Assembly: GCA_022009935.1 (NCBI GenBank)
Contig: CP091731.1
Coordinates: forward strand, 1,222,212 to 1,286,211
Origin: Candidatus Melainabacteria bacterium
GTDB taxonomy: Bacteria > Cyanobacteriota > Vampirovibrionia > Gastranaerophilales > Gastranaerophilaceae
Direction of reading: 5' to 3'
DNA length: 64,000 bases
Shown: positions 5,098 to 64,000 of the stretch, piece after piece
Layout: the number at the start of each line of letters is the position of its first letter
How positions within the stretch are numbered: position 1 is the first letter of the stretch
Program-made: the position numbers and the translations under genes
Notes under the pieces: model-generated
Databases searched by the model: none
What the model saw: the letters and a program-made list of their open reading frames with translations, nothing else
What the model was told of the DNA's origin: nothing

Positions 5098-5110
5098 GGA
5101 GAAGGAAACC

Positions 5111-5507: not shown

Positions 5508-5541
5508 CATCCGTAACAGTTTTTTAAAACTGTTACGGATG
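5508..5541 (+). terminator. intrinsic terminator candidate (perfect 15-16 bp palindrome)
   Basis: CATCCGTAACAGTTTT / AAAACTGTTACGGATG followed by TTTCAT. Confidence 0.55.
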
Positions 5542-5596
5542 TTTCATATTACTATAAAAAATTTACTGGGTATATAAAAGTAATGGAGGAACCAAT

Positions 5597-5954
5597 ATGG
5601 CACAAAAGGATTATGGGGCACAACGACAGGACTATAAAACCCCGACAGGCATTAAACTAGACGGTGGCAAGCCAAGAGTTGCGGAAATGATACAAGATTT
5701 TTCAATCCCGTTGCAATATGTAGCAAAAGTATGGGCTTTTTGGGGCCGATAAATACTCAAAAGGCAATTGGAAATGGGTAGAGAACGGTTTTGATAGATA
5801 CAGTAATGCCATGGTAAGGCATTTAATGGCAGAAATAGACGGTCCCGGAGTTGATAGTGAAAGCAAATTATTACACGCGGGCCACGTTGCATGGAACGCT
5901 TTAGCTAGATTGCATTTTTTACTTCGAGCACAGGAGGTGGATAAATGCGAATAA
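5597..5954 (+). CDS. DUF5664-like phage protein (dNTP pyrophosphohydrolase-like domain), one frame change
   Basis: ...KLDGGKPRVAEMIQDF...VWAF(G)ADKYSKGNWKWVENGFDRYSNAMVRHLMAEIDGPGVDSESKLLHAGHVAWNALARL. The family name is from memory. The break is at the T5 run 5737-5741. Confidence 0.45.
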
Positions 5955-18215: not shown

Positions 18216-19687
18216 ATGAAAAAAGTAGTTATTTATGCAAGAGTCTCCTCCAAACGACAAGAGGAAGAAGGGTATTCCATCCCGGCACAATTAAAATTTT
18301 TAAATGAATATGCAGCTAAAAAATGGTTTTGCAGTAGTCAAAGAATTTATAGATAGTGAAACCGCAAAAAAAGCCGGCCGCACAAATTTTAACGAAATGA
18401 TTAATTTTTTAAAAAGAATAGAACTGTAAACGCAATACTTGTAGAAAAAACGGATAGACTCTACCGCAATTTTAAAGACTACGTTTTGCTTGATGAATTT
18501 AAAAACCTAGAAATCCATTTAGTCAAAGAAGGTGGGATTATAAGCGAAAATTCCCGCTCACATGAAAAATTAGTGCATGGCTTTAAGGTATTAATGGCCA
18601 AAAATTATATCGATAATCTATCCGAGGAAATAATGAAAGGGCAGAAACAAGCCTGCGAACAAGGAGATTATCCCAGCAAACCACCTTATGGGTATTACCG
18701 ACCTAAAAAACAAATTTTAATCGACCCTAAAACATCAGGATACGTTCTAAGAGCTTTTAATTTATACTCCGAAGGCAATATATCTTTGGATGATTTATGT
18801 CAAAAAATGTTTAATGAGGGGTTTGTATATAGCGAAATAAGCCCCAAAATTCATAAAAAGTCAATTGTCAAAAATACTTAAAACCCTTTTTTATACGGGA
18901 AATTTTTTGTACAAAAATGTATTATACAAAGGTCGGCATGAGCCTTTAATCAGCATGGGTTTATTTGAAAAAGTGCAACTTGCTTTTAAAAAGACGGCAA
19001 GCCTGAAACACGCAGAAAACATCAATTTATTTATTCAGGTCTTTTTACATGTGCAAAATGTGGCTCGGCTATTGTTGGCGAAATAAAAAAAGGCAAATAT
19101 ATTTATTATCATTGTGCTGATAAAACCAAAAACTGTCCAAATAAAGGTATAAGCATAAAACAAGAGCAACTTGATAAGTATTTTGAGGAGTCGATTAAAA
19201 GAATTCAAATAACGCCCCAGCATAAGAAAGCTATTGTGGAAGCTTTAAAAGAGAGTCATAAAGATGAAGAAGAATATAATAAGTCTGAAATATTAAGGCT
19301 TACAAATAGGGCGGAGGTGCTTCGTAGCCGATTATCAAAAATATATGTTGATAAATTAGATGGTAAGATATCAGAAGATTTTGGGTTGAGAAAAATAACG
19401 AGTGGACGTTGGAGCATGCCAAAATTTTACGAGAAATTGAAGCGCATTCAAAAGCAAACGTGAATTACATGGCACAAGGCGCAAATCTGGTAGAACTTCT
19501 CGAAAACCTTTACACACACTACATTGAGCTCGACGACGCAGAAAAAACAAAAATACTAAAATATATCTTCTCGAACTTTTTGATAGACGGCCGAAACGTA
19601 AGCTATGAGTACGAAAAACCCTTTGACATTTTCGCCAAAGGACTGTCTCGTCTATTAAACTGGAGGATAGGAGATTCGAACTCCTGA
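18216..19687 (+). CDS. large serine recombinase (integrase), several frame changes
   Basis: MKKVVIYARVSSKRQEEEGYSIPAQ (catalytic Ser region), VEKTDRLYRN, recombinase domain PPYGYY, zinc-ribbon FTCAKCGSAIVGE...YYHC, coiled-coil C-terminus. The last 27 nt overlap tRNA-Ala in antisense. Confidence 0.8.
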
Positions 19688-19733
19688 CCCCCTGCGTGCA
19701 AGGCAGGTGCTCTACCAGCTGAGCTAATCCCCC
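19661..19733 (-). tRNA. tRNA-Ala (anticodon UGC)
   Basis: GGGGGATTAGCTCAGCTGGTAGAGCACCTGCCTTGCACGCAGGGGGTCAGGAGTTCGAATCTCCTATCCTCCA. Cloverleaf with a G3:U70 pair. CCA is not encoded. Confidence 0.9.
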
Positions 19734-19755
19734 AAGGAATTCACTTACATGTTTA

Positions 19756-19811: not shown

Positions 19812-20395
19812 TTTTTATATAAACCTAGCACAAAAAAAAACAAAGAAGTCCAATGGCTGACACTGCTTTATCTATAGACTTATGTCACAAGTTGCTTGAT
19901 TTTTTCTTTTTTTATATAAACCTAGCACAAAAAAAAACAAAGAAGTCCAAACTTGACTCTTCCTTGTTTTTTCGACTTTCTTAGCTAAATCTTTGCTTTT
20001 CTTCTTTTATATAAACCTAGCACAAAAAAGCAAAGAAGTCCAATGGCTGACACTGCCTTATCTATAAACTTATCCCACAAGTTGCTTAGATTTTTCTTTT
20101 TTTATATAAACCTAGCACAAAAAAAAACAAAGAAGTCCAAACTTGACTCTTCCTTGCTTTTTTCGACTTTCTTAGCTAAATCTTTGCTTTTTCTTCTTTT
20201 ATATAAACCTAGCACAAAAAAAACAAAGAAGTCCAAACTTGACTCTTCCTTGCTTTTACGACTTTCTTAGCTAAATCTTTGCTTTTCTTCTTTTATATAA
20301 ACCTAGCACAAAAAAAAACAAAGAAGTCCAATGGCTGACACTGCTTTATCTATAGACTTATGTCACAAGTTGCTTAGATTTTTTCTTTTTTATAC
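19812..20395. repeat. tandem array C: six 94-97-nt units with a common head and two alternative tails (order a-b-a-b-b-a)
   Basis: TATATAAACC unit starts at 19816, 19913, 20008, 20103, 20200 and 20294. The common head is TATATAAACCTAGCACAAAAAAAAACAAAGAAGTCCAA. The tails copy gene 3' ends (see findings). Confidence 0.9.
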
Positions 20396-25240: not shown

Positions 25241-26002
25241 ATGATAAAGAAAAAAATATTAAGTATTATTTTATTAGTTATATTATGTTTTACGCTAAAT
25301 CCGATTGCTGTTTTGGCAAATGAATATGATAATGATGGGGATTCTAACGGTTATGACCCTGTTGAGTTTAAATTTGAACATATAAACAATGGAAAAACGT
25401 CATCGCCAATGGATTTAATAAAAGTAACAGATGACGGCACACGAGTTATTGTTAAGAATAACCTTATCCCTATTGCCTTTAACGACCATTTTACGACTAA
25501 GAAATACAAGGATTTAAATGTAGTCGAGTTTTACATCCCTTGTGATATAACAACGAATAATGCAAAATGCTTAATTCCTGCCAAATCACTTGTTTTAGGT
25601 GAAATAAGCTGTATACAACAACCCAAATGGGGTAATCGTAATGCAAAAGTTTATATTACTTTAAAAAAGCTTATCTTCCCAAATGGGCGCCAGTTTGATA
25701 TATGCGCTAAACCATATGAAAATGGTGGTGTTTTGAAAAAAAGTGGTTGGACAAATTTTGGAAAAGCGGCAGCATATACAGTTGGCGGTTTTGGATTAGG
25801 AGCCGGTAACGGTGCTTGGATTGGGGCTTGTGCAGGCAACGCTTGGACAGGCACTTGGTTGGGCATGGCTATTGGCGGTGGCGCCGGGCTTTTGCTTGGA
25901 CTTTTTACACCGGGAATGCATTATAAGGCAAAAAAAGGTAAAGTCATTTATATGCGACTCTGTGAAGATATTATTATATCTCCTGATTGTTGTTGCGACT
26001 AA
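25241..26002 (+). CDS. secreted hypothetical protein with C-terminal glycine-zipper segment
   Basis: Intact 253 aa. Signal-like N-terminus KKKILSIILLVILCFTLNPIAVLA. C-terminal GGFGLGAGNGAWIGACAGNAWTGTWLGMAIGGGAGLLLGL. Confidence 0.6.
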   Translation: MIKKKILSIILLVILCFTLNPIAVLANEYDNDGDSNGYDPVEFKFEHINNGKTSSPMDLIKVTDDGTRVIVKNNLIPIAFNDHFTTKKYKDLNVVEFYIPCDITTNNAKCLIPAKSLVLGEISCIQQPKWGNRNAKVYITLKKLIFPNGRQFDICAKPYENGGVLKKSGWTNFGKAAAYTVGGFGLGAGNGAWIGACAGNAWTGTWLGMAIGGGAGLLLGLFTPGMHYKAKKGKVIYMRLCEDIIISPDCCCD

Positions 26003-26040
26003 ACAAAGAATTTGAAGTGAAATAAAATAAATTGATTTCA

Positions 26041-26125
26041 TTCACCATTGTGGATTGATTTTTGTTTACTTTTTGCGTTGAAGTCCAATTATTTTATTTT
26101 CCTCCAAATACTTTGTTTTAGTTTT
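26041..26125. repeat. single family-A repeat unit (degenerate)
   Basis: CACCATTGTGGATTGATTTTTG...GCGTTGAAGTCCAATTATTTTATTTTCCTCCAAATACTTTGTTTTAG, followed by TTTTATATGACGGGCT. Confidence 0.75.
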
Positions 26126-26514
26126 ATATGACGGGCTGCGGATTCGTCGTTGGCCGTCTTGGATTTCTTTCTAGCTCACAGAGCCGTGCCTTATGTGCCT
26201 TGCACAAGCCGGCACGGTCTGTTCGCTCCCCGGACTACGCCCGTTCAGAAATCCGCTTGCCTGATTGTGAGGAGAAAAGCGTTGCATCCGTGCGGAGCTT
26301 TAGACGAGGAAGCGACCCAGCTTCCGAGTATAAAGCGAAGTAGTTAATGACCGCCGTAGGAAAGACGACCGAATGAAATGAGGGCGGATGCCCCAGGCGG
26401 TAAAAAGCGTAAGCCGTGCGTAAAACAAAGCCAAAACGGCTCAGTTTTGGATTTGTTTGTAGCAGTTAATAGGCGACGGCGGATTCGCAGTTGGCCTTGC
26501 CTGATTGTGAGGAA
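26126..26514. other. GC-rich non-coding segment with long imperfect hairpins and module M copy A
   Basis: Much higher GC than the flanks. Extended hairpin 26167-26212 (AGAGCCGTGCC...GGCACGGTCT). M at 26351-26400. TTGCCTGATTGTGAGGA is repeated at about 26258 and 26497. The ORFs here have no SD and implausible composition. Confidence 0.6.
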
Positions 26515-26812
26515 CTGAACGGAGTGAAATAATTTTGTAAAAAAATTATGAAACGGAGTTGCATAGTTCCGAACGCTGCGTAATCCAAGATAAAAGAGTT
26601 TTCTTCGAAAACTCCACAGGAGCGAAAACTGAACGGAGTGGAACAATTTTGTAAAAATTGTGAAACGGAGTTGCATAGTTCGAACGCTGCGTAATCCAAG
26701 ATAAAAGAGTTTTCTTCGAAAACTCCACAGGAGCGAAAACTGAACGGAGTGGAACAATTTTGTAAAAATTGTGAAACGGAGTTGCATAGTTCCGAACGCT
26801 GCGTAATCCAAG
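26515..26812. repeat. 2.7 tandem units of 114/111 nt, each with two perfect 7-8 bp hairpins
   Basis: CTGAACGG unit starts at 26515, 26629 and 26740. Hairpins are ACAATTTT-GTA-AAAATTGT and GAGTTTTC-TTC-GAAAACTC. Unit 1 has the compensated variant ATAATTTT...AAAATTAT. Confidence 0.85.
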
Positions 26813-27060
26813 ACATGCTGTCTTCACTTCATCGTTCCAAATTATTGACAACTTGCAATCCTGCATTCCGTTTCGCCTTTTCAAGGCTACACTCCAGCGG
26901 ATTGCTGCGAACTTACGTGCTGGGTGTGCTGACGCACACACGGCGCACTAGTCAAAATTTGGCTAACCACGGCGGATATTATTTAATGCAGGGGGACGGC
27001 AAAGCCGTCCCCCTGCACCCCTTGGATATTCACAACTAAAAATGTGGAAAACAGAGCCAA
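26813..27060. other. GC-rich mosaic segment (modules L, K inverted, H1)
   Basis: L at 26813-26854 (same as 21812-21852). K at 26855-26905 (reverse complement of 22153-22202). H1 hairpin at 26988-27016, preceded by CCACGGCGG plus an AT spacer. Confidence 0.7.
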
Positions 27061-27096
27061 ACAAATGAGTGAACATTTCACGGGTTGCAAGGGGTT

Positions 27097-27371
27097 TTAT
27101 ATAACGGGCTAACGCGTGACAACTGATGCAGTCATTCACCAACGTGGATTGACTTTTACTTAATTATAGCGTTGAAGTCCAATAATGCTTTTTGTTAAGC
27201 ATTTTTGTTTTAGTTTTATATGACGGGCTAACGCGTGACAACTGATGCAGTCATTCACCAACGTGGGTTGGCTTTTGCTTAATTATAGCGTTGAAGTCCA
27301 ATTATTTTATTTTCCTCCAAATACTTTGTTTTAGTTTTATATAACGTGCCGTGGAATAACTAATTTTCACA
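27097..27371. repeat. family-A tandem units (2.3 copies) abutting the ispG stop
   Basis: TATATAAC / TATATGAC starts at 27097, 27217 and 27338 (120-121 nt period). The core is CACCAACGTGGATTGACTTTT...GCGTTGAAGTCCAAT. Confidence 0.85.
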
Positions 27372-28429
27372 CTACTTCAAACCAACAAGATAATTAGTAA
27401 GTATTGCTTCAAACTCGTTTAATAAATCTTCTTCTTTTACTTTTTTAATTATCTCGCCTTTTTTAAAAATATAACCTTCACCAATACCGCCTGCAATTCC
27501 AAAATCAGCATGTCTGGCTTCTCCCGAGCCATTGACGGCACATCCCATAACCGCAATTGTCAAAGGAGTTTTTATATTTTTAAATCTTTCCTCCACTTTG
27601 TGAGCAAGGTCAATCAAGTTTATTTTACACCTGCCACAAGTAGGGCAAGAGATAAAATTTATACCTTCATCACGAAGTTTTAAAGCTCGTAGTATATTAA
27701 ACCCTGCATAGACTTCTTCAATAGGGTTTTCACTTAGCGAAACACGTATTGTATCACCTATACCGTCAAGCAAAAGCGGTGAAAATGCAAGAGATGATTT
27801 TATTAGACCGTTTTTAAAGTACCTGCTTCTGTCAAGCCCAAGTGTAGCGGGTAATCTACTTTTTTGTCAATAAGCCTGTATGCTTCAATTGTTGTTTTAA
27901 CATCAGAAGATTTTAAAGACACTTTTATTTGGTCAAAATCGTTATCTTCTAATATCTTTATGTGTTCCATTGCCGACTCAACCATTTTTTCTGCAAGCGT
28001 TAAATCGTCACGGTTTGCATATTTTTTATCCAATGACCCCCCATTTATCCCGATACGGATTGGAATGTTGTGTTTTTTTGCACATTCGACAACTTTTTTA
28101 ACATTCTCTTCTTTTCCAATATTCCCAGGGTTCAATCTCAAAGCATCAACACCCATATCAATAGCGGTTAAAGCAAGCCTATAGTCAAAATGAATATCCG
28201 CAACAATTGGTATTGGTGATTTTTTCTTTATATCTTTCAAAGCGCTTGCCGCATCTTTATTTAAAACAGCTAAACGTATTATTTCACAACCGGCTTCGCT
28301 TAATTTAAAAATTTGGTTTAAAGTAGCGTTAACATCACAAGTATTTGTCGTACACATTGATTGGACAGCTATTTTATTTCCGCCACCGATTTTTACATCA
28401 CCTATTTTTATTACCTTTTTCATAGCCAT
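27372..28429 (-). CDS. ispG: 4-hydroxy-3-methylbut-2-en-1-yl diphosphate synthase (IspG/GcpE), one frame change
   Basis: Fragments 27803-28429 and 27372-27773 are colinear: ...HLGLTEAGT / GIGDTIRVSLS...CPTCGRC...GCAVNGSGEA. The break is at the T5/A3 run 27811-27818. Confidence 0.9.
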
Positions 28430-29901: not shown

Positions 29902-32900
29902 ATGTTTGAAAATAATGAGGATAATGATAATTTAAATGAGTTTCTAAATGACGATAACTATAACTCGTCAGATACAGAAAAAATAATAAATGCCGTTTCT
30001 AAAGTTGAAGTCGGTATAATTTCTGCAGTTGCAGGTTTTTTTGAAAATATTTCCTTTATTGAAGAAACTCAAGCCATTGAAGATAATATAACTATAAACA
30101 CTTTAAACGTTATAAATGAAATTCAATCCTTGCGTGAAATTCTTATTAAACTGCCTTCAATAAAAAATATTAATTCAAATAGTGAAACTAATGACAACCA
30201 AAGTGAAGTTATTGAAAAATTAAATAATATTATTGAAACTTTAAAAGCTGTTTCAAACAGACCACAAGCACCTATTGAACCTAAAATAAATATTAATATT
30301 AATGAAGCATTAAAACCTTTAAATCAACAATTAGAGTCAATTAATTCTTATATAAATGAAATAAATTCACAAATCCAAACTTTAAAAGCACAAAATACAG
30401 AAAATATTTTAAATAAAGAAAATATAGAAGAAATTTGTAATGTTACCGAGGCAAATGGCAGTAATGGCAATATAATTGAGTCTTTAAATTTTCTTAATAA
30501 AAACCTTAGTCAAAAATTGCAAGAGGTGAAAAGCTTTGTCCAAAGCGAAAATAACAACAAACAAATTAGTGATTCTTTAAGCAATCTTAACCAAAACTTA
30601 CAAGAGGTGAAAAGCTTTGTCCAAAGCGAAAATAACAACAAACAAATTAGTGACTCTTTAAGCAACCTTAACCAGAACTTGCAAGAGGTGAAAAGCTTTG
30701 TCCAAAGCGAAAACAAAAACCAAGAAATTTGCGATTCTTTAAGCAACCTTAACCAAAACTTACAAGAGGTGAAAAGTTTTGTTCAAAGCGAAAACAAAAA
30801 CCAAGAAATTTGCGATTCTTTAAGCAACCTTAACCAAAACTTACAAGAGGTGAAAAGCTTTGTTCAAAGCGAAAACAAAAACCAAGAAATTTGCGACTCT
30901 TTAAGCAATCTCAACAATAATTTGCTTGAAATAAAGGATATAGTTGACACATACGAAAGTCAAACATGCGATAGGCTTAGCAATGATATACAAAATCTAA
31001 TAAAAGCTATTGAAATTAATGAAGATATTTATAACAATCAAACCCAAAATGATATTTTTGAAGCGTTAAATACTCTAAACAGTAAAATTAGTATAATTAC
31101 ACACACATATAATGAAACTGATGAAAATGACGTAAAAAACTTATTTGTAAGTATTGACGAAATTATAAATCATCTAAATTCACTTGATTTAAATATTAAT
31201 ACTATAGAGCAAAACCAAAATTCAATTGATGTAAAATATGAACTTGATAGTTTAAAAGAAGAACTTTCACAAATTATTGACGAAAAAACATCCCTTGTTG
31301 ATGAAAACCAAAGCTATAACGTTAATGAAATATTGACTGCTATAAACAATATAAAAGATAATATATCAAATTTAGATGATAAAATTAATGATGAAAGCAA
31401 AAATGAACAAGATGTCGCTTTTCGTGAAGAAATAAAAACAAATTTGACAAAATTATCACAACTTGTCGAGTATTCTTCCTCAACATCTTCAAGTACAATC
31501 CAAAACGAAATAAAAGAAGTCAAAGATACAATTATTGAATCCGTTGCCGGATTTTTTGCAAACTTTAATTTTGAAGAAGAACAAGAAACAATACAAAATT
31601 TTATTGTTGAAAATAAAAATGATATAAATGACAAACTAAACCAAACATTTATAAAACTTGATGAAAAATTAACACCAATTACATCAACAATACAAAACAT
31701 TGATATACTTAAAGAAAACGTAAGTCGCATTAACGAAATATTTTCAAAATCATCTAATGAATTGGATGACAACAATGACACATACAATTATACTTTTATC
31801 GACCTTGAAAATGATATTATAAAACTCAATATGATGTTGAATGATTTAACAACATCATTAAACCAAAATTTAGACGAAAACAAAACTACAATAAAAAATG
31901 AATTATCCAATGTAACAGAAATAGTAGAGTCATTCAAAAACGAAAATACGTCTTTCATTAAAGACGAAATATCAAACTTGTCCTCGGTTGTTGAGTCAAC
32001 AAATGATGACATTTCAAGCATTTCGAAACGAACAAATAAACTTATAATCTTAGCCGATGAAGCACAAAATGCTTATAATAATAATGTTGAAAAATTCAAA
32101 AATCTTACATCACAAATAATTGCTCAAATCAACAATCTTACAAAATTAGGACAGGATTTTTCAAATATAATAAACAAACAAAACCTAACATTAAACAATA
32201 TTAACAATCTAAACGAAGCTTTTATATACCTTGGAACTTGGATTGATGAAGTTGATGTAGTATTTAAAAATATACAAGAAAACGTTAAAACAACGGTTAA
32301 AAACGAAGATTTAAACCTTGTTCGTGTATCGGTTGAAGATAGGCTTAATAGCATTGAAAATGTTGTTTCAAATATTGAAAACTCCATAAATGATATGACG
32401 TTAAAACTTAATTCTTATGAAGAAATAAATGTTAATGTCGAAGATAAAATAGGCAGCTTTGATGAAATATTTGAAAATATTGAAAACAATATTAACGATA
32501 ATAACTTTAAAATAAATAATTTAAGCGAACAAATCGCTGATGTTGAAAATTCGTTTAATAATAATCTTATCTCAAAACTTGATAGGGTTAATGAAGTTAT
32601 TGAAGAACTTCAAAATTCATACGAAGAAACAAACAACAGCATCAATGAAAAAATTGAAACCATTGAGAATAATCTTAATAATAATGGTGATTATAGCGAT
32701 AAATTCAATGAAATTCTTGAAAAATTAAAAGAAAATGAAGAAAAGAATAACGAAATATCAAGAAAATTAGAAGAAAAAGAACAACTTTTTGAACAAATGA
32801 AAAACGATATGGACAATGTTCACAAGCTTAATGCCAAAGTTAACGGAATTGAAGATGTAATTTTACGCCTTGATAAAAAAATAACACGGATTGTTAATTA

Positions 32901-39063: not shown

Positions 39064-39598
39064 TTATACTGTTTCTTCTTTTGTTGTTGTTTTTGTTGTT
39101 TTTATTATTTTATTGCCGTCTTTATCTTTTGTAGCTATTAATATACCATCAAAATTGTCTTCGTCTAAATCTTTGGCAGATTTATTTTCTTCATTATCTG
39201 TTTTATCGTTATTATCTTCACTTATTTCATCAATTTCATCAATTTCATCTTCGATAACTTCTTCTTTTTGTGCTTCTGTATTTTCCTTTTTCTTCTTTTT
39301 CTATTTCTTCAAAAGATTTAGTGCGAGTAATGCCAATATTAAACATAAAAGCAAGTTCATTTTCTTCACCTGAAAAACTTATATCATAAGTTTCTTCTTT
39401 TACGTCCATATATTTTGACAAAACTTTTATCAAGTCGCATTTAAGTTTTTCTGCAGATATTGAGTCAAGTTTCATTCTATCTTGCGTTAAAACAAGTTTT
39501 AATCTGTTATACGCTACATCTTTTGCATTTTCTTCTTCGTTTTCATTTTGGAAGAAATTTACCATTCTATTATAAATATCTGTTAATATATCTTTCAT
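39064..39598 (-). CDS. minE: cell division topological specificity factor MinE, possibly with a long acidic C-terminal tail (one frame change)
   Basis: AKDVAYNRLKLVLTQDRMKLDSISAEKLKCDLIKVLSKYMDV matches MinE. The track ORF stops at 39245, but about 80 more open codons (ENTEAQKEEVIEDEIDEIDEISEDNND...) follow in the next frame to TAA 39064-39066. Confidence 0.7.
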
Positions 39599-39636
39599 TT
39601 TTTTTACATAACGGGCTTGTGCCCCTCATCCTTTCT
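39599..39636 (-). promoter_or_regulatory. conserved intercistronic hairpin element (GAAGGATG..GGGC-N4-GCCC-GTTAT(A/G)TAAAA) between minD and minE
   Basis: Gene strand reads GAAAGGATGAGGGGCACAAGCCCGTTATGTAAAAAAA-ATG(minE). It closely matches the element in front of atpE (62634-62672) and in each family-A unit. Confidence 0.5.
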
Positions 39637-39641
39637 ATCAA

Positions 39642-46992: not shown

Positions 46993-48468
46993 ATGAATAG
47001 AACATTAACACCTTTAAAATCAAATACAACACCTAAAATTTATGCAAAAATGAATGCAGTTACACAACCTTATTTACCGTGGAATTTAAGCTATGCAATG
47101 CCACAAGATTCTTTTACCAGAACAAATCAAACTCCAACTCAAAAACTAGAAGAGGAATATTATCAAAATTCGGAGATAATTAATGAAACTTCCTCCTTCA
47201 AGTTTAGTAAAAAGTTTAGATGAACTTGAAACAGCTAGAATATTAAAACTTAGTAACACTAAAATAACATCTTTGCCTAATTTAAAAAATGTTAGAGAAT
47301 TATGGGCACCAAGAACATTGAAATATTTAAATAATCTTCAAACGGCTAAAATTATAAATATTTATAACACCAAAATTACATCCTTGCCTAGTCTAACTGA
47401 AGTTAAAAGAGAGTTTTTTGGCCAAGAACTTTAAAACAAATGGATAAGCTTGAAACTGCCGGTTTTTTTACATATTAATCAAACTCAAATTGAATCTTTA
47501 CCTAGCTTGAGGGAAGTTAACGGGCTGTGGGCACCATGGACATTAGGTGAGGATATTTTAAAAGTAGGTTGTCCTAAGTTGACTAACGTTAAGTCAATAT
47601 TAATTTTAAATAAGTCTAGTTTAGCATGTAAAGATTTTCCAAGTTTAATTCAAATTGGTGATGATGATAAATTATTTCAATTTCAAGGAAATCAATATAT
47701 AAAAACAATGGGTAATTTATTGAAAATAATAAATAAAAATCGCCAAGAAAAAGATTTGCTCCCATTAGAAGCTCAGCATATAAAAAAGAGATCAATATAT
47801 AATTATTTATCCTGAAGAAAATCCAAAATATAATAAAAGAACAGATATGTTATCAGAAAGACCAAATATTTCAAATATACAAAAATCGAACTATTATCCT
47901 CAAATGAATTCAAGATTAAACGATTATAGTTTTGATAAACAAAACCCAACATATAATGAAAAGAACAGATATGTTATCAGAAAGACCAAATATTTCAAAT
48001 ATACAAAAATCGAACTATTATCCTCAAATGAATTCAAGATTAAACGATTATAGTTTTGATAAACAAAACCCAACATATAATGAAAGAACAGATATGTTAT
48101 CAGAAAGACCAAATATTTCAAATATACAAAAATCAAACTATTATCCTCAAATGAATTCAATATTAAACGATTATAGTTTTGATAAACAAAACCCAACATA
48201 TAATAAAAGAACAGATATGTTGTCAAACAGACCAAATCTTTTAAATATGCAAGAACTAGATTATAATTTAGAAATAAATCCAAGATTAAACGATTATAGT
48301 TTTGATACAATAAACCCAACATATAATAAAAGAACAGATATGTTGTCAGAAAGACCAAATCTTTTAAATATGCAAGAACTAGATTATAATTTAGAAATAA
48401 ATAATCCTTTTAGTAGAACGTTTGAATATAACAATCAAAATAAAAAAAATATTAATTATTTTGGATAA
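46993..48468 (+). CDS. repeat protein: LRR-like TKI(T/E)SLP(S/N)L segments plus five 41-aa tandem repeats; several frame changes
   Basis: Track fragments 46993-47223, 47183-47434, 47450-47815 and 47932-48468 abut each other. The motif T(K/Q)I(T/E)SLPSL.EV..LWAP.TL recurs three times. Confidence 0.35.
47820..48440 (+). repeat. 5 x 123-nt coding tandem repeat
   Basis: AGAACAGATATGTT recurs every 123 nt. The unit encodes NPTYN(K/E)RTDMLSERPNISNIQKSNYYPQMNSRLNDYSFDKQ. Confidence 0.9.
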
Positions 48469-54291: not shown

Positions 54292-55644
54292 TCACTTTTT
54301 TAATAAAGGTAAATTTTTATTAAAGTATTTATTAAATATTAATCGGTATAAATTGACTAAAGATGTTTCATCTTGATTATATTCCAACTTTTGTTTATCC
54401 GGTGTATAAATAGCAAGTAAGATGTTATGGGCAAATTCTTTTGTTCGCACAAACCCATGATCGCTATGAAGTATTATAATTGAATTTTTTTCATCTTTTT
54501 CATAATTTGTTTTAAATTATTTATTGTTAATTTATTTATATATTTTTGATAAGGTAAATAATATGCAGGATTGGTAAAGTTATTTTCACTATTCAAGTTA
54601 CCTTTTTCATTACAATAGTATGGGGGATGTGGAGCAAGCAAATGTATATAGTGAAAGTTTTTCTTATTTATGTTTAATGGTAATTTTGAATAATGTTCTA
54701 AAGTATTTTTTATCTGACTGGTAAAATTATTACTATACTTTATAAAACAATAGAATAATAATTCAAAAAACTGATTTCCGGTAGTAAAATTTGAAGTATT
54801 TTTAAATAAAAAATTAAAATATTTACTTTTTATAACAGTTTTAACATCATAACCATTTTGCATAAAAAATTCAAAAACACGATTGTTTTTATAAAAAGGT
54901 AATATCATTTCAGGTAAAATAATATTCGTTTTTTCTTTTATTAAATTGTGAACATAATCATAATTTAAAAATGAACTTACAGATAAATTTGTTGTCATAT
55001 AATTACTATAAAAGTTTTCATAAATATTAAATCCCAAATTTATTAAATTTTCTTTAAATTCTAAATCACATAAATCTTTACGACTAAAACCACTGTGTGC
55101 ATCTAGAATAATATGATAAATGTCGGGTGTATCGTCATTATTTATAATAATATTTTTTTATTTTTAATATCATCGGTTTTTAAATGAGTGTTAAATGTTT
55201 TGTGACGTTTTATTGTATCTTGAATAATGATCAAGTTTAAAAAGGCTAGGGTATAAAATCCAATTTTTGAAATGAATGACAAATCAACTTTTCGCAAGAT
55301 GAAAGCTAATAATAAAGAAATAGTAACAGTTATAGAAAAAGTGAGTGCAAGATAAGTTATTTTATTTTTCATTAGGCTTCGTTGATATTTTGAATATAAT
55401 GCAACAAAGATTGTATTAATATTTGTCATAACAAAAATAAAAAAGTCGTTATTAAAGCACTTAAATGTATATTTGAAGTTAGAAGGAAAATAAATGCCAG
55501 AGAAGCTGTAAAGAATAATTCCATAAAAAATAATGTTTTAAAGTAATCTTTCTCACTAATTTCAGTAAGGTTTTGTGCATAAATAGATGTAATATAAATT
55601 AAAACTAAAAGTAACGGGTAAAAAGCAATAAACGACATAATCAT
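54292..55644 (-). CDS. membrane-anchored sulfatase / alkaline-phosphatase-superfamily protein (LTA-synthase-like), frame changes
   Basis: Two hydrophobic N-terminal fragments (55426-55644, 55142-55429), then DIYHIILDAHSGF..., HYIHLLAPHPPYY, IIILHSDHGF. Confidence 0.55.
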
Positions 55645-57036
55645 TTCCTTTTTAACAAATATAATATTCTATCTGATTGATATAGATGTTGTTTTTGTTC
55701 GATATTAAAATATTTAGAAAATTGTAACTCAAAATTTGTTTCACTATAATTTTCAAATATATCTTCTCTAGTTGCCAGCAATATTTTAACTTTTGAATCA
55801 GTTTTGGTACAAATTCGATGATAAGATAATGACATAAATTAGAGAAAAATTCAGCAATGTTTTCAAAAGGTAGATTGTTTGATATTGCAAGATGATGAAT
55901 TAAAGCTAAAGCCATGCCAATATCACATTTAAAACGAGCATTTATGTCATCTCGTTCTTTGTTCATAAAACCGATTGCAGGTGATGGGTTGAGCAAATCC
56001 TGTATTAAGGGCAATATTCTTGGTTCTCGGTTTTCTTTCATTTGTAGATAATTTTTTTCCACTGCTTGAGCATCTATATCCAAAGCTATTGTTGAAATAT
56101 TATTTTTAGACAATAATCTTGAAAAAGTGCCATCATTTGCTCCAAAATCACAACCTTTGCTGATATTTTTATTACTATCAACTATTTGATTAATATAATT
56201 TTCGACTATTTCAAACTTTTGTTTTTGGGATGTTTGTGTGTAGTTTGTATTTGTATAATATTTTCCCCATTCTGTTTTAATTTTTGGGAACTTTAAAGCA
56301 CTAATAGTTGAATATAGAGAGTCAATGAGTGCTTCCAGTTGAATTTTTGATATTTTTTGATTTTTTATATTAATGTTTGAATTAGTTTCATTTTGTTTAT
56401 TAAATTTATTATGCAAAACAAGATGCATAAAAATACCGCTATTGAGCTTTGCTTTAAAAGGTAAAAGCTTGCAACACAAGTCAAGAGGTATGCCATCAAT
56501 GTTAGTTTTTAATAATTGATTTAAAGATATATCTTTATAAGCCATAAGAGCCAAAGGAGCTAAGAAATGTTTACAAAACTGAAAATATGCAATCCAAGGG
56601 CTGCCTTTTTCATATTCTTCAAATGAAAGAGTGTCAATAAAAATAGGCTTACCGTTTCTAAATTGAATATTATATGCATTTGCATCCTTTAAAGTCATTG
56701 AATGTTCAAGGGCAATTTTTGTATTGTAAGAGTACACAATGCAGCATCTTTTAACTGTGAAAAACACCATTCATAAGGATATGTGATATATTCCAATTTT
56801 TCAGGTTTAATGATTTTATACTTATCTTTAGTTATACTATCAGAATTAAATTCTTGACACTCAACATGAGAAACAAGTAATCCTTGATTAACCAATGTGG
56901 TATATAAATTTGAGTTTAATAATTTATCATAATGTTTTTTATATAGATGATTTACTTGTCTATAAATATCATTATTATGCATAAATACAAATCCTGATGG
57001 GTCTTTGTATGAAGTATAATGCATTATTTTATGCAT
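55641..57036 (-). CDS. class I SAM-dependent methyltransferase with N-terminal extension, frame changes
   Basis: GCDFGANDGTFSRLL (motif I), ALDIDAQAV, ALALIHHL. The stop overlaps the next start (ATGA at 55641-55644). Confidence 0.6.
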
Positions 57037-57522: not shown

Positions 57523-57611
57523 CGGAGAGAGAGGGATTTGAACCCTCGGTGAAGTTTGACCCCCACACAGACGTTCCAGGTCTGCACCTTAAGCCACTCG
57601 GACACCTCTCC
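57523..57611 (-). tRNA. tRNA-Ser (anticodon GGA)
   Basis: GGAGAGGTGTCCGAGTGGCTTAAGGTGCAGACCTGGAACGTCTGTGTGGGGGTCAAACTTCACCGAGGGTTCAAATCCCTCTCTCTCCG. Confidence 0.9.
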
Positions 57612-57619: not shown

Positions 57620-58565
57620 TTAAATAGCATTTGCACCACTTACAACTTCGTTTATTTCTTGAGTAATGGCACCTTGACGTGCTTTGTTATAGTCAACACT
57701 TAGTTTATATATCATGTCCTCTGCATTTTTGCAAGCTGATGACATAGCTGTCATACGAGAAGCCAATTCAGATGCTGTTGCTTCAAGCAAAGCATGGTAT
57801 ATCATATTTGTAATAAACATCGGAACAACTTTTTGCAAAATAACGTGTTCATTTGGCTCAAATGTCATCAAAGCATCTATTTGTGTTGCTTTGTTTGGTT
57901 TTTGTTCATCGGATTCATTGTTTTCTTTCATTTCGTCTAAGTTCATTGGCAAGATAGTCCAGTCAACAACTTTATATGACATCATATTTTGAAAACGTGT
58001 TGTTATGATTTCAATGTTGTCTATTTTGTTATCAACAAAACAACTTGTCATATCTTCAGCTATAACAATTGCCTGACCTGATGTAGGATTTTGCGGAATG
58101 TTTAGATATTTTTTTTCAATTTCACAATTTAAGCTTTCACACTTGCGACGCAACCCTTGATAACCTTTTTGTCCAACGATAAACAATTTGACTTTAATAT
58201 TTTGTTTATTATATTCTTCAATACGCTTCAAAGTAAAGCGAATAACATTTGCATTATAAGCTCCGGCTAATCCTTTTGAAGAAGTGACAATAAGCATTCC
58301 TGCAGTTTTAAGCTCTCTTGGTTTCAACAACTCAGCATAATTATCCAAAGCTCGTTTCACCTTTAACCCACTCATTGAATATTTGCTTACAGAGCGTAAA
58401 GCCTGCTAAAAACAAACGCAACTTCTTTGGCAAAAGGTCTTGCGGCTTTCACTCGGTTTTCAGCTTTTTTACTTTTGCAGCTGCCACCATTTTCATTGCT
58501 TTTGTTATTTTTTGTGTGTTTTGAATACTTGTTATTCTGTCTTTTATATCTTTTAAATTTGACAT
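57620..58565 (-). CDS. atpG: ATP synthase F1 gamma subunit (one frame change)
   Basis: [36 protein letters not shown]... joined to track ORF 57620-58375 (...[20 protein letters not shown]). Confidence 0.9.
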
Positions 58566-58608
58566 ATTTATTTTAACCTATATTATTTATTCGCCACAAA
58601 AACCCGAC

Positions 58609-60109
58609 TTAAATGAACTTATGTTTTTTCTTTAATGTTTCAATATCTTCGTCATTCATTTTTTCACCGGAATTTAGTTTATCATTAAGTTGAGGCATAT
58701 TGGATTCAAAATAATCAAACCAACATTTTTTAAACTCAGGGATTTTAGTATTTTTTATATCATCTAAAAACCCATTGTTAGCGGCAAAAAGGATAGATAT
58801 TTGTTTTGCGACACTCAATGGTGAATACTGTGGTTGTTTCAAAACTTCAGTTAATTTTTCACCTCGAAGAAGTTGGTCTCGAGTAGCTTTATCCAAATCA
58901 CTTGCAAACTGTGCAAACGCTTCAAGTTCGTGGTATTGTGCCAAATCTAAACGAAGTTGTCCTGCAACTTGTTTAATACCTTTTGTTTGTGCAGCACCAC
59001 CTACACGAGAAACAGAAATCCCTGCATTTATTGCAGGACGTACACCTGAATTAAATAAATTGCTTTCCAGGAATATTTGTCCGTCAGTTATAGAAATAAC
59101 ATTAGTGGGGATATAAGCAGAGACGTCGCCGGCTTGAGTTTCAATAATAGGCAAAGCAGTTATACTTCCACCACCTAATTCATCATTCAGCTTACAAGCA
59201 CGCTCAAGCAATCTTGAATGTAAATAAAAGACATCACCAGGGTAAGCTTCACGTCCCGGTGGGCGTTTCAACAACAAGCTCATTGCACGATATGCTTGAG
59301 CGTGCTTTGTCAAATCATCATATATTATTAAAACTGATTTTCCCTCTTCCATAAACTCTTCGCCAATTGCAACACCCGCAAATGGTGCTATATATTGCAT
59401 TGGAGCCGGTGAGTTCGCAGAAGCGTTCACTATTATTGTATAATCCATAGCATCGTGTTCATTCAACGTTTTGGCTAGTTGAGCAACTGTTGAGTTCTTT
59501 TGACCGATTGCAACATAAATACATATTACATCACGACCTTTTGGTTGATGATTGTGTCAATAGCGATAGCTGTTTTGCCTGTTTGTCTATCTCCAATAAT
59601 CAACTCACGTTGTCCTTTTCCAATTGGTGTTAATGCATCAATTGCAGTCAAGCCTGTTTGAAGTGGCTCTATGTACTGATTTTCTTGTTACAATCCCCGG
59701 TGCAACACGTTCAATGGCTCGAGTTTTTGTATATTCGATATTGCCTTTACCGTCAAGTGCAACCCCTGTTGGGTCAATTATCCTTCCTATCAGGCCTGTA
59801 CCAACCGGTACTGATGCAATTCGTCCTGTCGTTTTTACTTTAGTGCCTTCTTTTATTTCTTTATAATCACCCAAGATTACAACACCAACATTATCTTCTT
59901 CTAGGTTTAACACAAGACCCAAAGTTTTATTTTCATCTTCAAACTCGACAAGTTCACTTTTGCATGGCATCTTTCAAACCATATATTCTTGCTATGCCAT
60001 CGCCTGATTCAAGCACCTGACCTTGTGTGTTTATTTCAACTCGACTTTCATAATTCTCTATTTTTGAACGTATTATATTTGTGATTTCGCTTGGATTTAT
60101 TGTTACCAT
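58609..60109 (-). CDS. atpA: ATP synthase F1 alpha subunit (frame changes)
   Basis: [23 protein letters not shown]..., ...[15 protein letters not shown]..., [13 protein letters not shown] (Walker A region in a shifted frame), ...[19 protein letters not shown]... Confidence 0.9.
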
Positions 60110-60780
60110 TTTTTATATAATCCTTCCTTGTTATATTACATCAAGTCCAATCTTGACACTTCTTCAATCTCTAATTATACTACTAAACCATTGATTTTCT
60201 GTTTTATATAACCCTTCCTTGTTTAATTTTGCTATTGTTTGTTTACTTTTTTGGGGGTTGCAGGGAGGCTTTGCCTCCCCTGCTGTTATAAAATCCGCCG
60301 TAGGAAAGACGCCCGATTGAAATGAGGGCGGATCCCTCAGGCGGAAAAAAGAGTTTGGAATGTTTGTATCTATTTAATTTTTATTTGGTTTATATAACCC
60401 TTCCTTGTTATATTACATCAAGTCCAATCTTGATACTTCTTCAATCTCTAATTATACTACTAAACCATTGATTTTCTGTTTTATATAACCCTTCCTTGTT
60501 ATATTACATCAAGTCCAATCTTGACACTTCTTCAATCTCTAATTATACTACTAAATCATTGATTTTCTGTTTTATATAACCCTTCCTTGTTATATTACAT
60601 CAAGTCCAATCTTGACACTTCTTCAATCTCTAATTATACTACTAAACCATTGATTTTTTTGTTTTATATAACCCTTCCTTGTTATATTATATCAAGTCCA
60701 ATCTTGACACTTCTTCAATCTCTAATTATACTACTAAACCATTGATTTTCTGTTTTATATAACCCTTCCTTGTTATATTA
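60110..60780. repeat. tandem array B: 91-92-nt units (five full, two partial) filling the atpH-atpA intergenic region
   Basis: TATATAAC starts at 60114, 60205, 60391, 60482, 60573, 60665 and 60756. Each full unit carries TTGACA-17-TATACT on the + strand (first copy 60153-60181). Confidence 0.9.
60224..60388 (+). other. 165-nt GC-rich segment (H1 hairpin + module M) replacing most of array-B unit 2
   Basis: H1 GCAGGGAGGC-TTT-GCCTCCCCTGC at 60260-60283. Spacer TGTTATAAAAT. M CCGCCGTAGGAAAGACGCCCGATTGAAATGAGGGCGGATCCCTCAGGCGG at 60295-60344. Confidence 0.7.
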
Positions 60781-61323
60781 CATCAAATTATTCTTTAATC
60801 GTTCATATCTGCTTTTTATACTACCATCAATTATTTTATCATTAGTTTTTATAATTAAACCACCAATGATTGATTTATCAACGGTATAATTTAATAGTAT
60901 TGTCTTTTTAAATTTGTTTTCCAATTTATACTTTAAACGTTCTTTTGTTTCATCGTTTAAAACTATAGCTGATGTTACGCTAACTTTAAGTTTATTTTTA
61001 ATCTCATCATCGAACTCGCAATACCAATGTGCTATATCTTCAAATATATCCATCCGACGTGCTTGAATTAACATTCTTAGAAAATTTAGTGTTTTTTCTG
61101 ATATTTTAGATGCAAAAATTTCACTAATAATTTCTTCAACTTTTTCTTCATTAAATGTTGGATTTATAAGCACATTCTTTAAATCTGAAGATGATTTTAT
61201 TGTTTCATTTATTAAGCTCAAATCATTACGTATAACATCAATATCATTTCCTGCACTTTCAATTAATGCACGTGAATATCGTTTTGCTATTGTTTCATTT
61301 TTATAACTCATGTTTTTCATCAT
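60778..61323 (-). CDS. atpH: ATP synthase F1 delta subunit (OSCP)
   Basis: Intact 181 aa. IAKRYSRALIESA... and C-terminal DKSIIGGLIIKTNDKIIDGSIKSRYERLKNNL. Confidence 0.85.
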   Translation of the reverse strand: MMKNMSYKNETIAKRYSRALIESAGNDIDVIRNDLSLINETIKSSSDLKNVLINPTFNEEKVEEIISEIFASKISEKTLNFLRMLIQARRMDIFEDIAHWYCEFDDEIKNKLKVSVTSAIVLNDETKERLKYKLENKFKKTILLNYTVDKSIIGGLIIKTNDKIIDGSIKSRYERLKNNLM

Positions 61324-61824
61324 AATGATAACCCGTCTATACTATTTATGCATTCATCAATATATTTTTGATGTAATTGTGGATTTTGACTTAGAGTTTG
61401 TTTTATATTTTCATAACTTAATGCTATTGATGCTTTTGATATTGAACTTGTTACATCGTTATATGTATTTTGTACTTCACGGTCAATATCCTTTATTAAC
61501 GTTTTTTCCAAATGGTCTTTTATTTCTTCTAATTCATCTTGAGCTTTTTCTTCAATGTTCTCCAAAGTTTTTTGAGCATTTTTAACTATCATATCTGTTT
61601 CGATATGTACATTCTCCAAACTTTTTTTGCTTTTTTCATATTTTGTTAAAGCAACTTTAACATCATCGTTAGATTTGTTAATTTTTTCAACTATTTTTTT
61701 ATGATTATTATCAATAATACTTTTTTACATCAAGTCTTCTTATAATTAAAGCAATAAAGCCTATCATAATTAGGAAGTTTATTACGTTTGAATGTATTAT
61801 ATTTGTATATGAAAAATCAAACAT
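61320..61824 (-). CDS. atpF: ATP synthase F0 b subunit (one frame change)
   Basis: MFDFSYTNIIHSNVINFLIMIGFIALIIRRL (TM helix), then a charged helix (track ORF 61320-61619). The start overlaps the upstream stop (ATGTTTGA). Confidence 0.75.
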
Positions 61825-62290
61825 TTCTCATTACCTCATCAACTTTATTTTCATCAAATGATATATTGTCAATATTTTCTCCAAGGATTTTTGTTGCAAT
61901 ATAATTGGATAATGATTTAACATCCTCTCGCACATTTTTATATATATCATTTTTTTGGTTTTCTAAGTCATTTTTTGCATTAGTTAATTTATTAGCTATT
62001 TCATTTTTTTTATTTTTTATTTCAACATCTTTTTGGTTTTTCAATTTATCTTTGCCATTTAAAATAATATCATTAGCGTTTTGATTTGCCTTTTGTATGT
62101 TAATATTATGTTGATTAATGCATTCTTTTTCGTTTTGGTTGTGGGTATTAACTTTTGTTTTATTATCATCAAGGAGCATATTACGTTTTTCAATAATATC
62201 ATTAATTGGCTTGTATAATATTTTATTCATAAGCAAAGTAAATATTATAAAGCTAATTGTTGCTATTAAAAAAGTTCCGTTAAATTCCAT
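61817..62290 (-). CDS. atpF2: ATP synthase F0 b-prime-type subunit (second b paralogue)
   Basis: Intact 157 aa. MEFNGTFLIATISFIIFTLLMNKILYKPINDIIEKR followed by a long charged helix. Confidence 0.75.
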   Translation of the reverse strand: MEFNGTFLIATISFIIFTLLMNKILYKPINDIIEKRNMLLDDNKTKVNTHNQNEKECINQHNINIQKANQNANDIILNGKDKLKNQKDVEIKNKKNEIANKLTNAKNDLENQKNDIYKNVREDVKSLSNYIATKILGENIDNISFDENKVDEVMRNV

Positions 62291-62323
62291 TTTATACCCT
62301 TTAACCTTTCATTCTATTTATGT

Positions 62324-62350
62324 GAAAGCAGTTAAAATTAAACTGCTTTC
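62324..62350 (-). promoter_or_regulatory. 10-bp stem-loop between atpE and the b-prime gene (mRNA stabiliser/attenuator candidate)
   Basis: GAAAGCAGTT-N7-AACTGCTTTC, a perfect stem in the 81-nt spacer after the c-subunit gene. Confidence 0.45.
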
Positions 62351-62371
62351 AAGCATAAAAGAACTTTACTA

Positions 62372-62623
62372 TTATCCTATCATACCGCAAAGTTTCATAG
62401 CAATAAATAAGCCATAAATAGCACAAGCTTCAGATAAAGCAGCACCAAGAAGGAAGAACCCCACAGCCTTACCGGCTATTTCAGGTTGACGAGCTATTGC
62501 TTCAAGCAGACCCTTTGTTGCCACACCAATACCAACACCTGCACCTATTGCACCAAAACCGATTGCAATACCTGCACCTAAGTTGCTTAATCCCTGTACT
62601 TCGTTTAACATTTCTGTTACCAT
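62372..62623 (-). CDS. atpE: ATP synthase F0 c subunit
   Basis: Intact 83 aa. GAGIAIGFGAIGAGVGIGVATKGLLEAIARQPEIAGK...LSEACAIYGLFIA. AAGGAG SD. Confidence 0.95.
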   Translation of the reverse strand: MVTEMLNEVQGLSNLGAGIAIGFGAIGAGVGIGVATKGLLEAIARQPEIAGKAVGFFLLGAALSEACAIYGLFIAMKLCGMIG

Positions 62624-62633
62624 ATTTTTCTCC

Positions 62634-64000
62634 TTTTTTATATAACGGGCTATCGCCCTACATCCTTCTTATTCTACCACCAACGTGGAATGACTTTTGT
62701 TTAATTTTTGCATTGAAGTCCAATTATTTCATTTTCCTTCAAATACTTTGTTTTAGGTTTTATATAACGGGCTATCGCCCTACATCCTTCTTATTCTACC
62801 ACCAACGTGGAATGACTTTTGTTTTGATTTTGCATTGAAGTCCAATTATTTCATTTTCCTTCAAATACTTTGTTTTAGGTTTTATATAACGGGCTATCGC
62901 CCTACATCCTTCTTATTCTACCACCAACGTGGAATGACTTTTGTTTTGATTTTGCATTGAAGTCCAATTGGTACTTCCTAATATCGTTTATCATAATAAA
63001 CTTAAATTTGTGCAACCCATACGCAGTCGTGAACAATTATCACTTAACGAAACATCGTCAAAGCCAAGTTTGTTTGAACATTGGGCTTTGCCCAATGTGA
63101 GTTACGCAGGCTCGAGTTGAGTTTAGTGAAAATGTGAACGACAAGTCGGGGACTGAGTTTTTGTGCAACTTTGCCACCAAAAGTTGCCCCGTCCGGAGGA
63201 CATTATATTTAATTTAGTTTTATTAACCTTTAATTTTTTATTTTCCATTTTTTCCTTTTTTATATAACGGGCTATCGCCCTACATCCTTCTTATTCTACC
63301 ACCAACGTGGAATGACTTTTGTTTAATTTTTGCATTGAAGTTCAATTATTTCATTTTCCTTCAAATACTTTGTTTTGGGTTTTTATATAACGGGCTATCG
63401 CCCTACATCCCTTCTTATTCTACCACCAATGTGGAATGACTTTTGTTTAATTTTTGCATTGAAGTTCAATTATTTCATTTTCCTTCAAATACTTTGTTTT
63501 GGGTTTTATATAACGGGCTATCGCCCTACATCCTTCTTATTCTACCACCAACGTGGAATGACTTTTGTTTTGATTTTGCATTGAAGTCCAATTGGTACTT
63601 CCTAATATCGTTTATCATAATAAACTTAAATTTGTGCAACCCATACGCAGTCGTGAACAATTATCACTTAACGAAACATCGTCAAAGCCAAGTTTGTTTG
63701 AACATTGGGCTTTGCCCAATGTGAGTTACGCAGGCTCGAGTTGAGTTTAGTGAAAATGTGAACGACAAGTCGGGTGCCGGTTTTGTGCAACTTTTGCCAC
63801 CAAAGTTGCCCCGTCCGGAGGACATTATATTTAATTTAGTTTTATTAACCTTTAATTTTTTATTTTCCATTTTTTCCTTTTTTATATAACGGGCTATCGC
63901 CCTACATCCTTCTTATTCTACCACCAATGTGGAATGACTTTTGTTTAATTTTTGCATTGAAGTTCAATTATTTCATTTTCCTTCAAATACTTTGTTTTAG
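62634..64000. repeat. higher-order tandem repeat upstream of atpE: 622-bp blocks of three family-A units plus a 289-nt X segment; continues past the window end
   Basis: TATATAAC starts at 62639, 62761 and 62883, then 63261, 63384 and 63507, then 63883. X segments at 62970-63260 and 63595-63882. Block period is exactly 622 nt. Confidence 0.9.

Follow-up and report, generated by a model that had tools for sequence, protein, structure and literature searches.

BOX elements of S. pneumoniae (boxA-boxB(n)-boxC) are modular intergenic repeats with a variable number of tandem internal subunits and a predicted stable RNA structure, which lie near gene starts and can affect expression. ERIC/IRU sequences and the Correia elements of Neisseria are intergenic, long imperfect hairpins of 100-200 nt that occur in either orientation in transcribed spacers and can bring promoters or processing sites with them. 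Enterobacterial BIMEs, which are clusters of REP sequences, are extragenic, often lie within operons, occur singly or as variable tandem arrays, and are dispersed and strain-variable (PMC2817692, PMC3333891).

The locus described here is a repeat array directly upstream of atpE in a 64,000-nt stretch of Gastranaerophilales DNA (the whole of which is called the window). It consists of units (U) and a structured RNA-like element (X). Like BIMEs, it has a small GC-rich hairpin with linker motifs, forms variable tandem arrays, and has relatives at many loci. Unlike BIMEs, its modules in the window have one orientation, its units are AT-rich and 122 nt long, some of them with a structured cargo of ~200 nt, and neither a GTAG/CGTC-tagged REP nor a RAYT gene was seen. 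The REP/BIME class is recognized by GC-rich palindromes of 20-40 bp in alternating orientation, typically GTAG/CGTC-tagged, together with a RAYT (Y1 transposase) in the genome; the 12-nt GC hairpin GGGCGATAGCCC of the array recurs always in one orientation, has no GTAG/CGTC head, and no Y1 transposase was seen next to copies. The likeness to BOX lies in a modular intergenic repeat with variable tandem subunits and predicted RNA structure next to a gene start. The array shares no sequence similarity with BOX, however, its subunits are ~3 times longer, and it includes an independent structured element in either orientation. Like ERIC/IRU and Correia elements, X is intergenic, has a long imperfect hairpin fold and occurs in spacers in both orientations, but it has no clear terminal inverted repeats (TIR) with target duplications, its fold is branched and, through G-U pairs, strand-specific, and it is carried inside a larger direct-repeat cassette. 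Sibling sRNAs such as cyanobacterial Yfr2 and E. coli Sib resemble X in their near-identical intergenic copies, upstream promoter-like sequence and 3' hairpins, whereas the putative RNA X is longer, far more structured, and matches no Rfam family. None of these systems is a family match, and they are the closest analogues only.

Our main reading, to which we give a probability of roughly 70%, is that the spacer between the genes for subunits a and c (the a–c spacer) was colonized by a BIME/BOX-like dispersed mosaic repeat, which was amplified by unequal recombination and contains a nested small-RNA-like X cargo. The locus is real but ordinary in kind, as intergenic mosaic repeats go; more novel are the covarying X family and a dispersed module, Y.

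Architecture of the array upstream of atpE

The first gene downstream of the array is atpE (62372..62623, minus strand), which encodes the F0 subunit c of 83 aa (ORF list; Pfam ATP-synt_C); a terminator-like hairpin follows it at about 62300-62340. The atpE leader (62624..62660, minus strand) is the 3' end of the last unit, as the initial annotation had claimed, with the hairpin GGGCGATAGCCC (from the RNA fold), GTTATATAAAA and the SD sequence AAGGAG directly before the ATG. The gene strand at this start reads GGGCGATAGCCCGTTATATAAAAAAGGAGAAAAATATG, and the first unit abuts it.

Unit starts are marked on the plus strand by TTTATATAACGGGC at 62637, 62759, 62881, 63259, 63382, 63505, and 63881, and full units are 122-123 nt long. 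Block 1 opens with two units of 122 nt (62637..62758 and 62759..62880, both minus strand). The first contains CCACGTTGGTGG, an extended -10-like TG-n-TAGAAT, the hairpin module and GTTATATAAAA. The third unit (62881..62969, minus strand) is truncated to 89 nt at the X junction; in each block this unit ends after GAAGTCCAATT, and the segment that comes next measures 289 nt in block 1 (62970-63258) and 287 nt in block 2 (63594-63880). Within this segment, the first X core (63009..63210, plus strand) was delimited by cmsearch, folding, and family covariation. It is RNA-like in structure, antisense to the atp operon, and has two terminal hairpins. A consensus scan alone placed a promoter-like TTGGTA-18-CATAAT before it (62968..62997, plus strand); the -35 of this site is made at the unit/X junction and its end lies 11 nt before the X core. 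Downstream of X is an AT-rich linker (63211..63258), in which the atp strand (minus) presents a pseudo gene start (AAGGAAAAAATGGAAAATAAAAAATTAAAG) preceded by GTTATATAAAA.

Block 2 repeats this layout with units of 123 and 123 nt and a truncated third unit (63259..63593, minus strand), a second copy of the promoter-like site (63592..63621, plus strand; consensus scan), and a second X core (63633..63832, plus strand; cmsearch). The two X cores are 95% identical and differ in a multi-base patch near 63775. The first unit of block 3 (63881..64000, minus strand) is cut by the window end, where the array runs off. As assembled, the array comprises at least seven units and two X copies. Tandem Repeats Finder reported periods of 122 and 124 nt, and motif searches counted 7 in-array copies against 0.00-0.03 expected from shuffled sequence. 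All that was first described is there, namely units of 122 nt, an X segment of 289 nt and a block period of 622 nt, which occurs twice, and the array is far beyond chance. The blocks had also been said to recur exactly and in phase. The phase is kept, but the identity is not exact: 608 of 625 aligned columns agree (97.3%), with 11 mismatches and 6 gap columns, and unit variants differ between the blocks (GTCC/GTTC; TTTTGATTTT/TTTAATTTTT).

Subunit a and the conspecific strains

A search by tblastn found no subunit-a homologue anywhere in the 64,000 nt, which bears out the earlier remark that none lies within 1.4 kb of atpE and rules out a location elsewhere in the window. The exact AtpE protein was present on 22 contigs with Pfam ATP-synt_C. 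Ten AtpE-matching metagenomic contigs from other samples, taken with 10-kb flanks, served as the conspecific set (~98-99% nucleotide identity to the window). In all ten, the order is ATP-synt_A, array, atpE, and a 231-aa ATP-synt_A gene stops right before the first hairpin module of the array. Because ATP-synt_A lies directly upstream of the array in every one of these contigs, the subunit-a gene of the window strain is most likely located just past base 64000, and the loss or displacement that the initial annotation implied does not hold.

Array length differs among these strains, in agreement with the proposed number polymorphism. The conspecific a–c gap measures 164, 286, 467 (with an N gap, in L001), 597, 719 or 963 nt and contains one to five full units and zero or one X, counts that are possibly too low since short-read contigs may collapse repeats. 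In the direction from a to c, the arrays are built as U; U-U; U-X-U; U-U-X-U; U-X-U-U; and U-U-U-U-X-U, and in L037 the atpE leader is directly adjoined by X. Arrays of equal length carry X at different positions (L006 vs L009), for which collapse alone is insufficient as an explanation. In a set of 26 full units from 11 strains, just a few positions are variable, in keeping with recent amplification or homogenization, and the view of a recently expanded, near-homogeneous array is upheld.

Origin and spread of the unit family

In sister species, the a–c spacers are ~100, 35, and 84-126 nt long and lack the unit (the a subunit is 92%, 80%, and 71% identical, respectively). The species with 92% identity has unit-like pieces (CCACATTGGTGGA; CATTGTTATATAAAAAGGA) inside its 345-nt c–b' spacer. 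Unit-family copies or hairpin modules also occur elsewhere in the window, at 26040-26140, 27095-27345, and 39602, all intergenic. In another species, hisS is preceded by the right-hand module (CATTCCACATTGG, hairpin, GTTATATAAAAC), and the interval from tonB to exbB contains related cassettes. The leader type of the window, with GTTATATAAAA and the pseudo-start, flanks X in other species as well. That units would be found elsewhere in the genome or lineage is borne out by these copies. The sister-species spacers without the unit, together with the family copies at other loci, indicate at the sequence level that the unit is an acquired dispersed repeat and not an ancestral atpE leader; the idea of the unit as the operon's own leader is accordingly given up.

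Two motifs, TTGGACTT and TTATATAAAA, are common to the unit and to two other arrays of the window, one in the delta–alpha spacer with units of 91 nt, the other ahead of tRNA-Ala with units of 97/190 nt.

The basic cassette is the 122-nt AT-rich unit, bounded by direct repeats of a hairpin module of ~35 nt (AGGATGNAGGGCGATAGCCCGTTATATAAAA); cassettes are placed head to tail, have boundary modules in common, and are polymorphic in copy number, position and cargo. A mechanism can be proposed as follows. As tandem cassettes share modules, unequal homologous recombination would readily alter copy number. Recombination between 122-nt units or ~35-nt modules, the putative amplifying mechanism, could both amplify and delete cassettes. 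Some cassettes carry the GC-richer cargo X, with promoter-like sequence upstream and two 3' hairpins. In the window strain, an X cassette of the antisense type may have entered the array, after which the block [U-U-U'-X] of 622 nt would have been amplified as a higher-order unit to two copies and part of a third at the least. The X-adjacent variants (GTCC, TTTTGATTTT) have spread to the neighboring unit in block 1 and not in block 2, which fits local gene conversion.

Further repeats in the operon and the window

The atp operon has the order a, c, two b-type genes (b', b), delta, alpha, and gamma, with beta and epsilon not adjacent, an order that matches the cyanobacterial arrangement. The cluster (57620-62623) ends at a tRNA-Ser (57523-57611). 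A second variable array of the same operon occupies the atpH (delta)–atpA spacer (60130-60790, minus strand). It has 91-nt units, whose boundary takes in the final codons and the stop codon of atpH. The array is interrupted by an insert, Y, that is GC-rich (about 60230-60370; CCGCCTGAGGGATCCGCCCTCA...CGGCGG plus GGGGAGGCAAAGCCTCCC). In conspecific strains, the delta–alpha gap ranges from 117 to 746 nt, and Y is present in six of the nine contigs that cover the spacer and absent from three.

A third array (19813-20331) lies upstream of tRNA-Ala (19660-19734, minus strand) and alternates two unit types of ~95-97 nt, giving a 190-nt period with 2.7 copies; it has TTGGACTTC and GGTTTATATAAAA in common with the atp arrays. 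A good tRNA-Ala promoter (TTGCAT-17-TATAAT) is located downstream of it. At 25980-27420 (minus strand), a non-coding island of 1.4 kb has unit-family copies at both ends. Between them lie a module resembling Y (about 26330-26400), a tandem repeat of 111 nt (26513-26813), and further GC-rich hairpins. In this island, no Rfam family reached its threshold (Hammerhead_3 and Fusobacteriales-1 were weak and not significant), and its 111-nt module recurs at 91% identity on a contig of another species (L035). A single hairpin module (AGGATGAGGGGCACAAGCCCGTTATGTAAAA) lies right before a gene start at 39590-39640 (minus strand), which suggests that the module is a general intercistronic element of this genome. 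Other tandem repeats are probably coding: 18 nt x 22.5 at 16439-16843, 81 nt x 5 at 30502-30915 (in a 1008-aa ORF), and 123 nt x 4.5 at 47818-48375.

Fold and family of the X element

Covariance model searches scored the two X cores of the window at 189.3 bits (E 2.6e-41, copy 1) and 192 bits (E 6e-42, copy 2). The model recovered 35 strong matches (130-227 bits), in four MAGs and in gut metagenome contigs, and exactly two in the window. The predicted fold of copy 1 has -59.6 kcal/mol and a z score of -2.34. RNAalifold on 16 X copies gave 39 pairs, 16 of them with compensatory changes. In the larger alignment A4, 98.0% of the cells are paired, vs 25-46% when the partners are slid by 1-3 columns. 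Double changes occur in 20 of the 39 pairs, and the observed value was reached in 0 of 500 shuffles; A4 was fitted to the model and many X copies are paralogues from one genome, which inflates these shuffle statistics and leaves the slid controls unaffected. A 3' hairpin outside the model covaries as well (GGGCAC/GTGCC, GGTTAC/GTAACC, GCAAC/GTTGC, GCAGC/GCTGC). The fold is specific for the named strand owing to G-U pairs that are frequent or invariant. Two hairpins close the core, and A/T-rich sequence comes after them.

With one genome per species, a 19-mer scan found the X core in four Gastranaerophilales MAGs, one of which has at least 11 copies, and a degenerate family pattern added ten human-gut metagenome contigs. 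The 19-mer matches on L011, L015, L021-L023, and L027 were discarded as chance, as flanking similarity was absent. Viral contigs gave one chance 19-mer match and none to the X family pattern, and BLAST of the X segment against phage and plasmid collections gave no match. Exact-protein look-ups with three spurious ORFs inside X found no window-type block on record. A conserved leader peptide reading into X was considered and rejected: the frame is kept in several sense copies and not in L032, bin68, or the window.

Rfam 15 returned nothing for the X region at gathering thresholds, and in E-value mode the best scores were 17-19 bits vs thresholds of 41-55. The bin68 X copies were likewise sub-threshold (40.9 bits to a miRNA precursor model with a threshold of 500; 23 bits to RAGATH-7, threshold 111.8), and nothing meaningful was found on the window array, a conspecific array, the bin68 X/Y clusters or the 26-27 kb island. 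A literature search found no paper on repeats or ncRNAs in Gastranaerophilales. In the supplementary files of Fremin and Bhatt (2021), of which the first 200 were covered, X motifs did not occur.

X is an element of ~190-200 nt with a conserved multi-helix fold and would, most simply, be either the gene of a small structured RNA or a mobile module with such structure. An undescribed structured RNA-like element of ~200 nt in gut Gastranaerophilales, and thereby a candidate for a new RNA family, is well supported. We infer that X is transcribed. In the window and in bin68, the X core is preceded by promoter-like hexamers that end 5-11 nt upstream of it and are unrelated in sequence, and a promoter scan of the region found no more sites than in shuffled sequence.

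Insertion and orientation of X

The window X is 78-80% identical to copies in other species (L018, L034, L026) and at most ~73% identical to the conspecific sense copy (L002), which has the opposite orientation and different junctions. The conspecific sense X in turn shares 94% identity with a copy that another species carries at a different locus. The window core shares a 23-mer and overall similarity with the insert in four conspecific arrays, where it has the opposite orientation. The antisense arrangement, with reverse-complement units on both sides, recurs in other species (L013, L031, L034), UMGS1657 included. Sense and antisense X in different contexts point to at least two cassette types, one for each orientation, and an X-bearing cassette fills the slot between two hairpin modules exactly like a plain unit. 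One and the same spacer contains, in conspecific strains, differing cassette types with another X subfamily in opposite orientation. Judged by these alignments, the X insertions into the array are independent.

In the MAG BRZ_DS__bin68 (L028 5880-7190; L012, L014, L024, L025, L030), X forms convergent and divergent pairs of two paralogous subfamilies, Xa and Xb, each with a promoter-like site. The copies are interleaved with Y, which is multicopy in this genome and adjoins X copies, and with other GC-rich modules. The X cluster of L028 comes after a 283-aa ORF (4809-5660).

X might instead be selfish non-autonomous mobile DNA of the REPIN/MITE/ERIC kind, with its fold kept for recognition of single strands by a transposase and the array as a by-product. 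X is multicopy and dispersed with near-identical copies in one genome, its presence and orientation are polymorphic at one site, and its fold is largely a long imperfect palindrome; compensatory change is also known from REPINs (PMC3116915). We nevertheless consider it rather unlikely. TIR with target duplications at a fixed boundary were not found, and no Y1 transposase, RAYT, other transposase, recombinase or other mobilizing protein was identified near X copies. The multi-helix junction and invariant G-U pairs of the fold, the unrelated promoter-like sites at a similar distance before the core in two species, and the two 3' hairpins, which resemble a transcript end, also speak against it. 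A MITE (TIR plus target site duplication, TSD) was rejected because the units are bounded by direct and not inverted repeats of the hairpin module, and the X junctions are context-dependent with no common TIR or TSD. X has no constant protein partner, its neighbors being diverse housekeeping genes; for this reason, and since its 5' and 3' ends are constant within a genome, a TnpB/IscB omega-RNA or an IS110 bridge RNA, which would be encoded beside its nuclease or recombinase gene and have a variable guide segment at one end, was dismissed. A CRISPR array was excluded because the 'spacers' between hairpin modules are near-identical and the neighborhood has no cas-like ORFs. An integron array was excluded because GTTATAT/ATATAAC do not fit the R' and R'' core sites of attC (GTTRRRY / RYYYAAC) and an integrase gene is absent from the 20-kb conspecific loci.

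Possible effects on atp expression

Besides the mosaic repeat with its X cargo, an expression device has to be weighed, in which unit promoters, 5' hairpins, unit number, and X orientation tune or switch expression of the c subunit or of the whole operon. In F0, subunit c is needed in large excess over a. The unit motif TG-n-TAGAAT, a putative extended -10 promoter of atpE, is invariant except for n in the 26 full units of 11 strains, and in the last unit 49-50 nt separate the start of this box from the atpE ATG. The c-subunit mRNA may be protected at its 5' end by the hairpin, as a putative stabilizer. Copy number and X orientation vary among conspecific strains, and the delta–alpha spacer of the operon is similarly variable. 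Transcription of X in the window strain, if it occurs, would be directed against read-through coming from the a gene.

Almost all unit positions are invariant, however, which makes the conserved box uninformative. The unit is absent from this spacer in sister species, which do without it, the homologous cassette on L016, from another species, has not conserved the box, and 122-nt repeats are unlike classical phase-variation tracts. On balance, we regard such a device as unlikely. Two smaller candidates were also dropped: a mini-ORF ATG-AAA-TAA in the unit, as its ATG is polymorphic (A in 12 of 26 and G in 14 of 26 units), and TTGGAC with TATATAAA as a promoter, as the spacing is at least 25 nt.

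Assembly quality and block number

A comparison with the conspecific contig L003 over 8.4 kb showed 23 indels in the window, nearly every one of a single base in an A/T run. Many genes of the window are split by frameshifts, for example atpA (58609-60109) and 55641-56770. The one-base indels in A/T runs mark the window as an unpolished long-read-type assembly. The frameshifts in atpA are thereby accounted for, and resolution of a longer array than in the other contigs becomes plausible; pseudogenization of the atp operon was rejected, the frameshifts being homopolymer errors by comparison with L003. Gene calls in the window are unreliable for the same reason.

A long-read assembler could have over-expanded a short array, the real locus having one block or a few units. 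Homopolymer errors are numerous in the window, the conspecific contigs reach at most 963 nt and one X, and the window-specific X hairpin and variant had no match in the JGI metagenome collection. We still find such an artefact quite improbable. Between the blocks, 17 of 625 columns disagree (11 substitutions and 6 indel columns), among them the multi-base X patch and distinct unit variants, so that the blocks are not a trivially duplicated assembly loop. Moreover, short-read contigs are expected to collapse repeats of this kind, one of them has an N gap, and five full units plus X were reached in conspecific contigs.

Tandem type I toxin-antitoxin or LDR-like modules, with a small toxic peptide and an antisense RNA in each 622-nt block, can be set aside as extremely improbable: the block size and tandem arrangement are comparable to those of E. 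coli LDR repeats, and an SD-ATG pseudo-leader flanks X, which is antisense to it in the window, but where a conserved small hydrophobic ORF would belong, the ORFs through X change frame and length from one window copy to the other and from species to species, the short peptide in some sense X copies is Lys-rich and not hydrophobic, the bin68 copies have ATG-TAA only, and the elaborate conserved fold of X is unlike simple antisense RNAs.

Significance

The mosaic-repeat reading removes a false alarm, as the subunit-a gene is neither missing nor displaced. Mosaic repeats on the kilobase scale, which differ from strain to strain, are tolerated between the cistrons of an essential and normally compact operon in an uncultured lineage of the human gut. 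Such arrays are natural strain-typing markers and, at the same time, a hazard for short-read assembly. The covariance model of X is clear, so the family is searchable, and X can be synthesized and probed. Sense and antisense X in one spacer of conspecific strains provide a natural experiment on the balance of a–c expression.

A bolder proposal is put forward tentatively, as one that we doubt somewhat: X, perhaps with the co-occurring Y, may be a new class of structured ncRNA specific to gut Melainabacteria, carried as cargo of hairpin-delimited cassettes that shuffle, invert, and amplify between operon spacers, possibly by an RNA- or recombination-based route. If this is true, insertion of X cargo cassettes would rewire the expression of essential operons such as atp.
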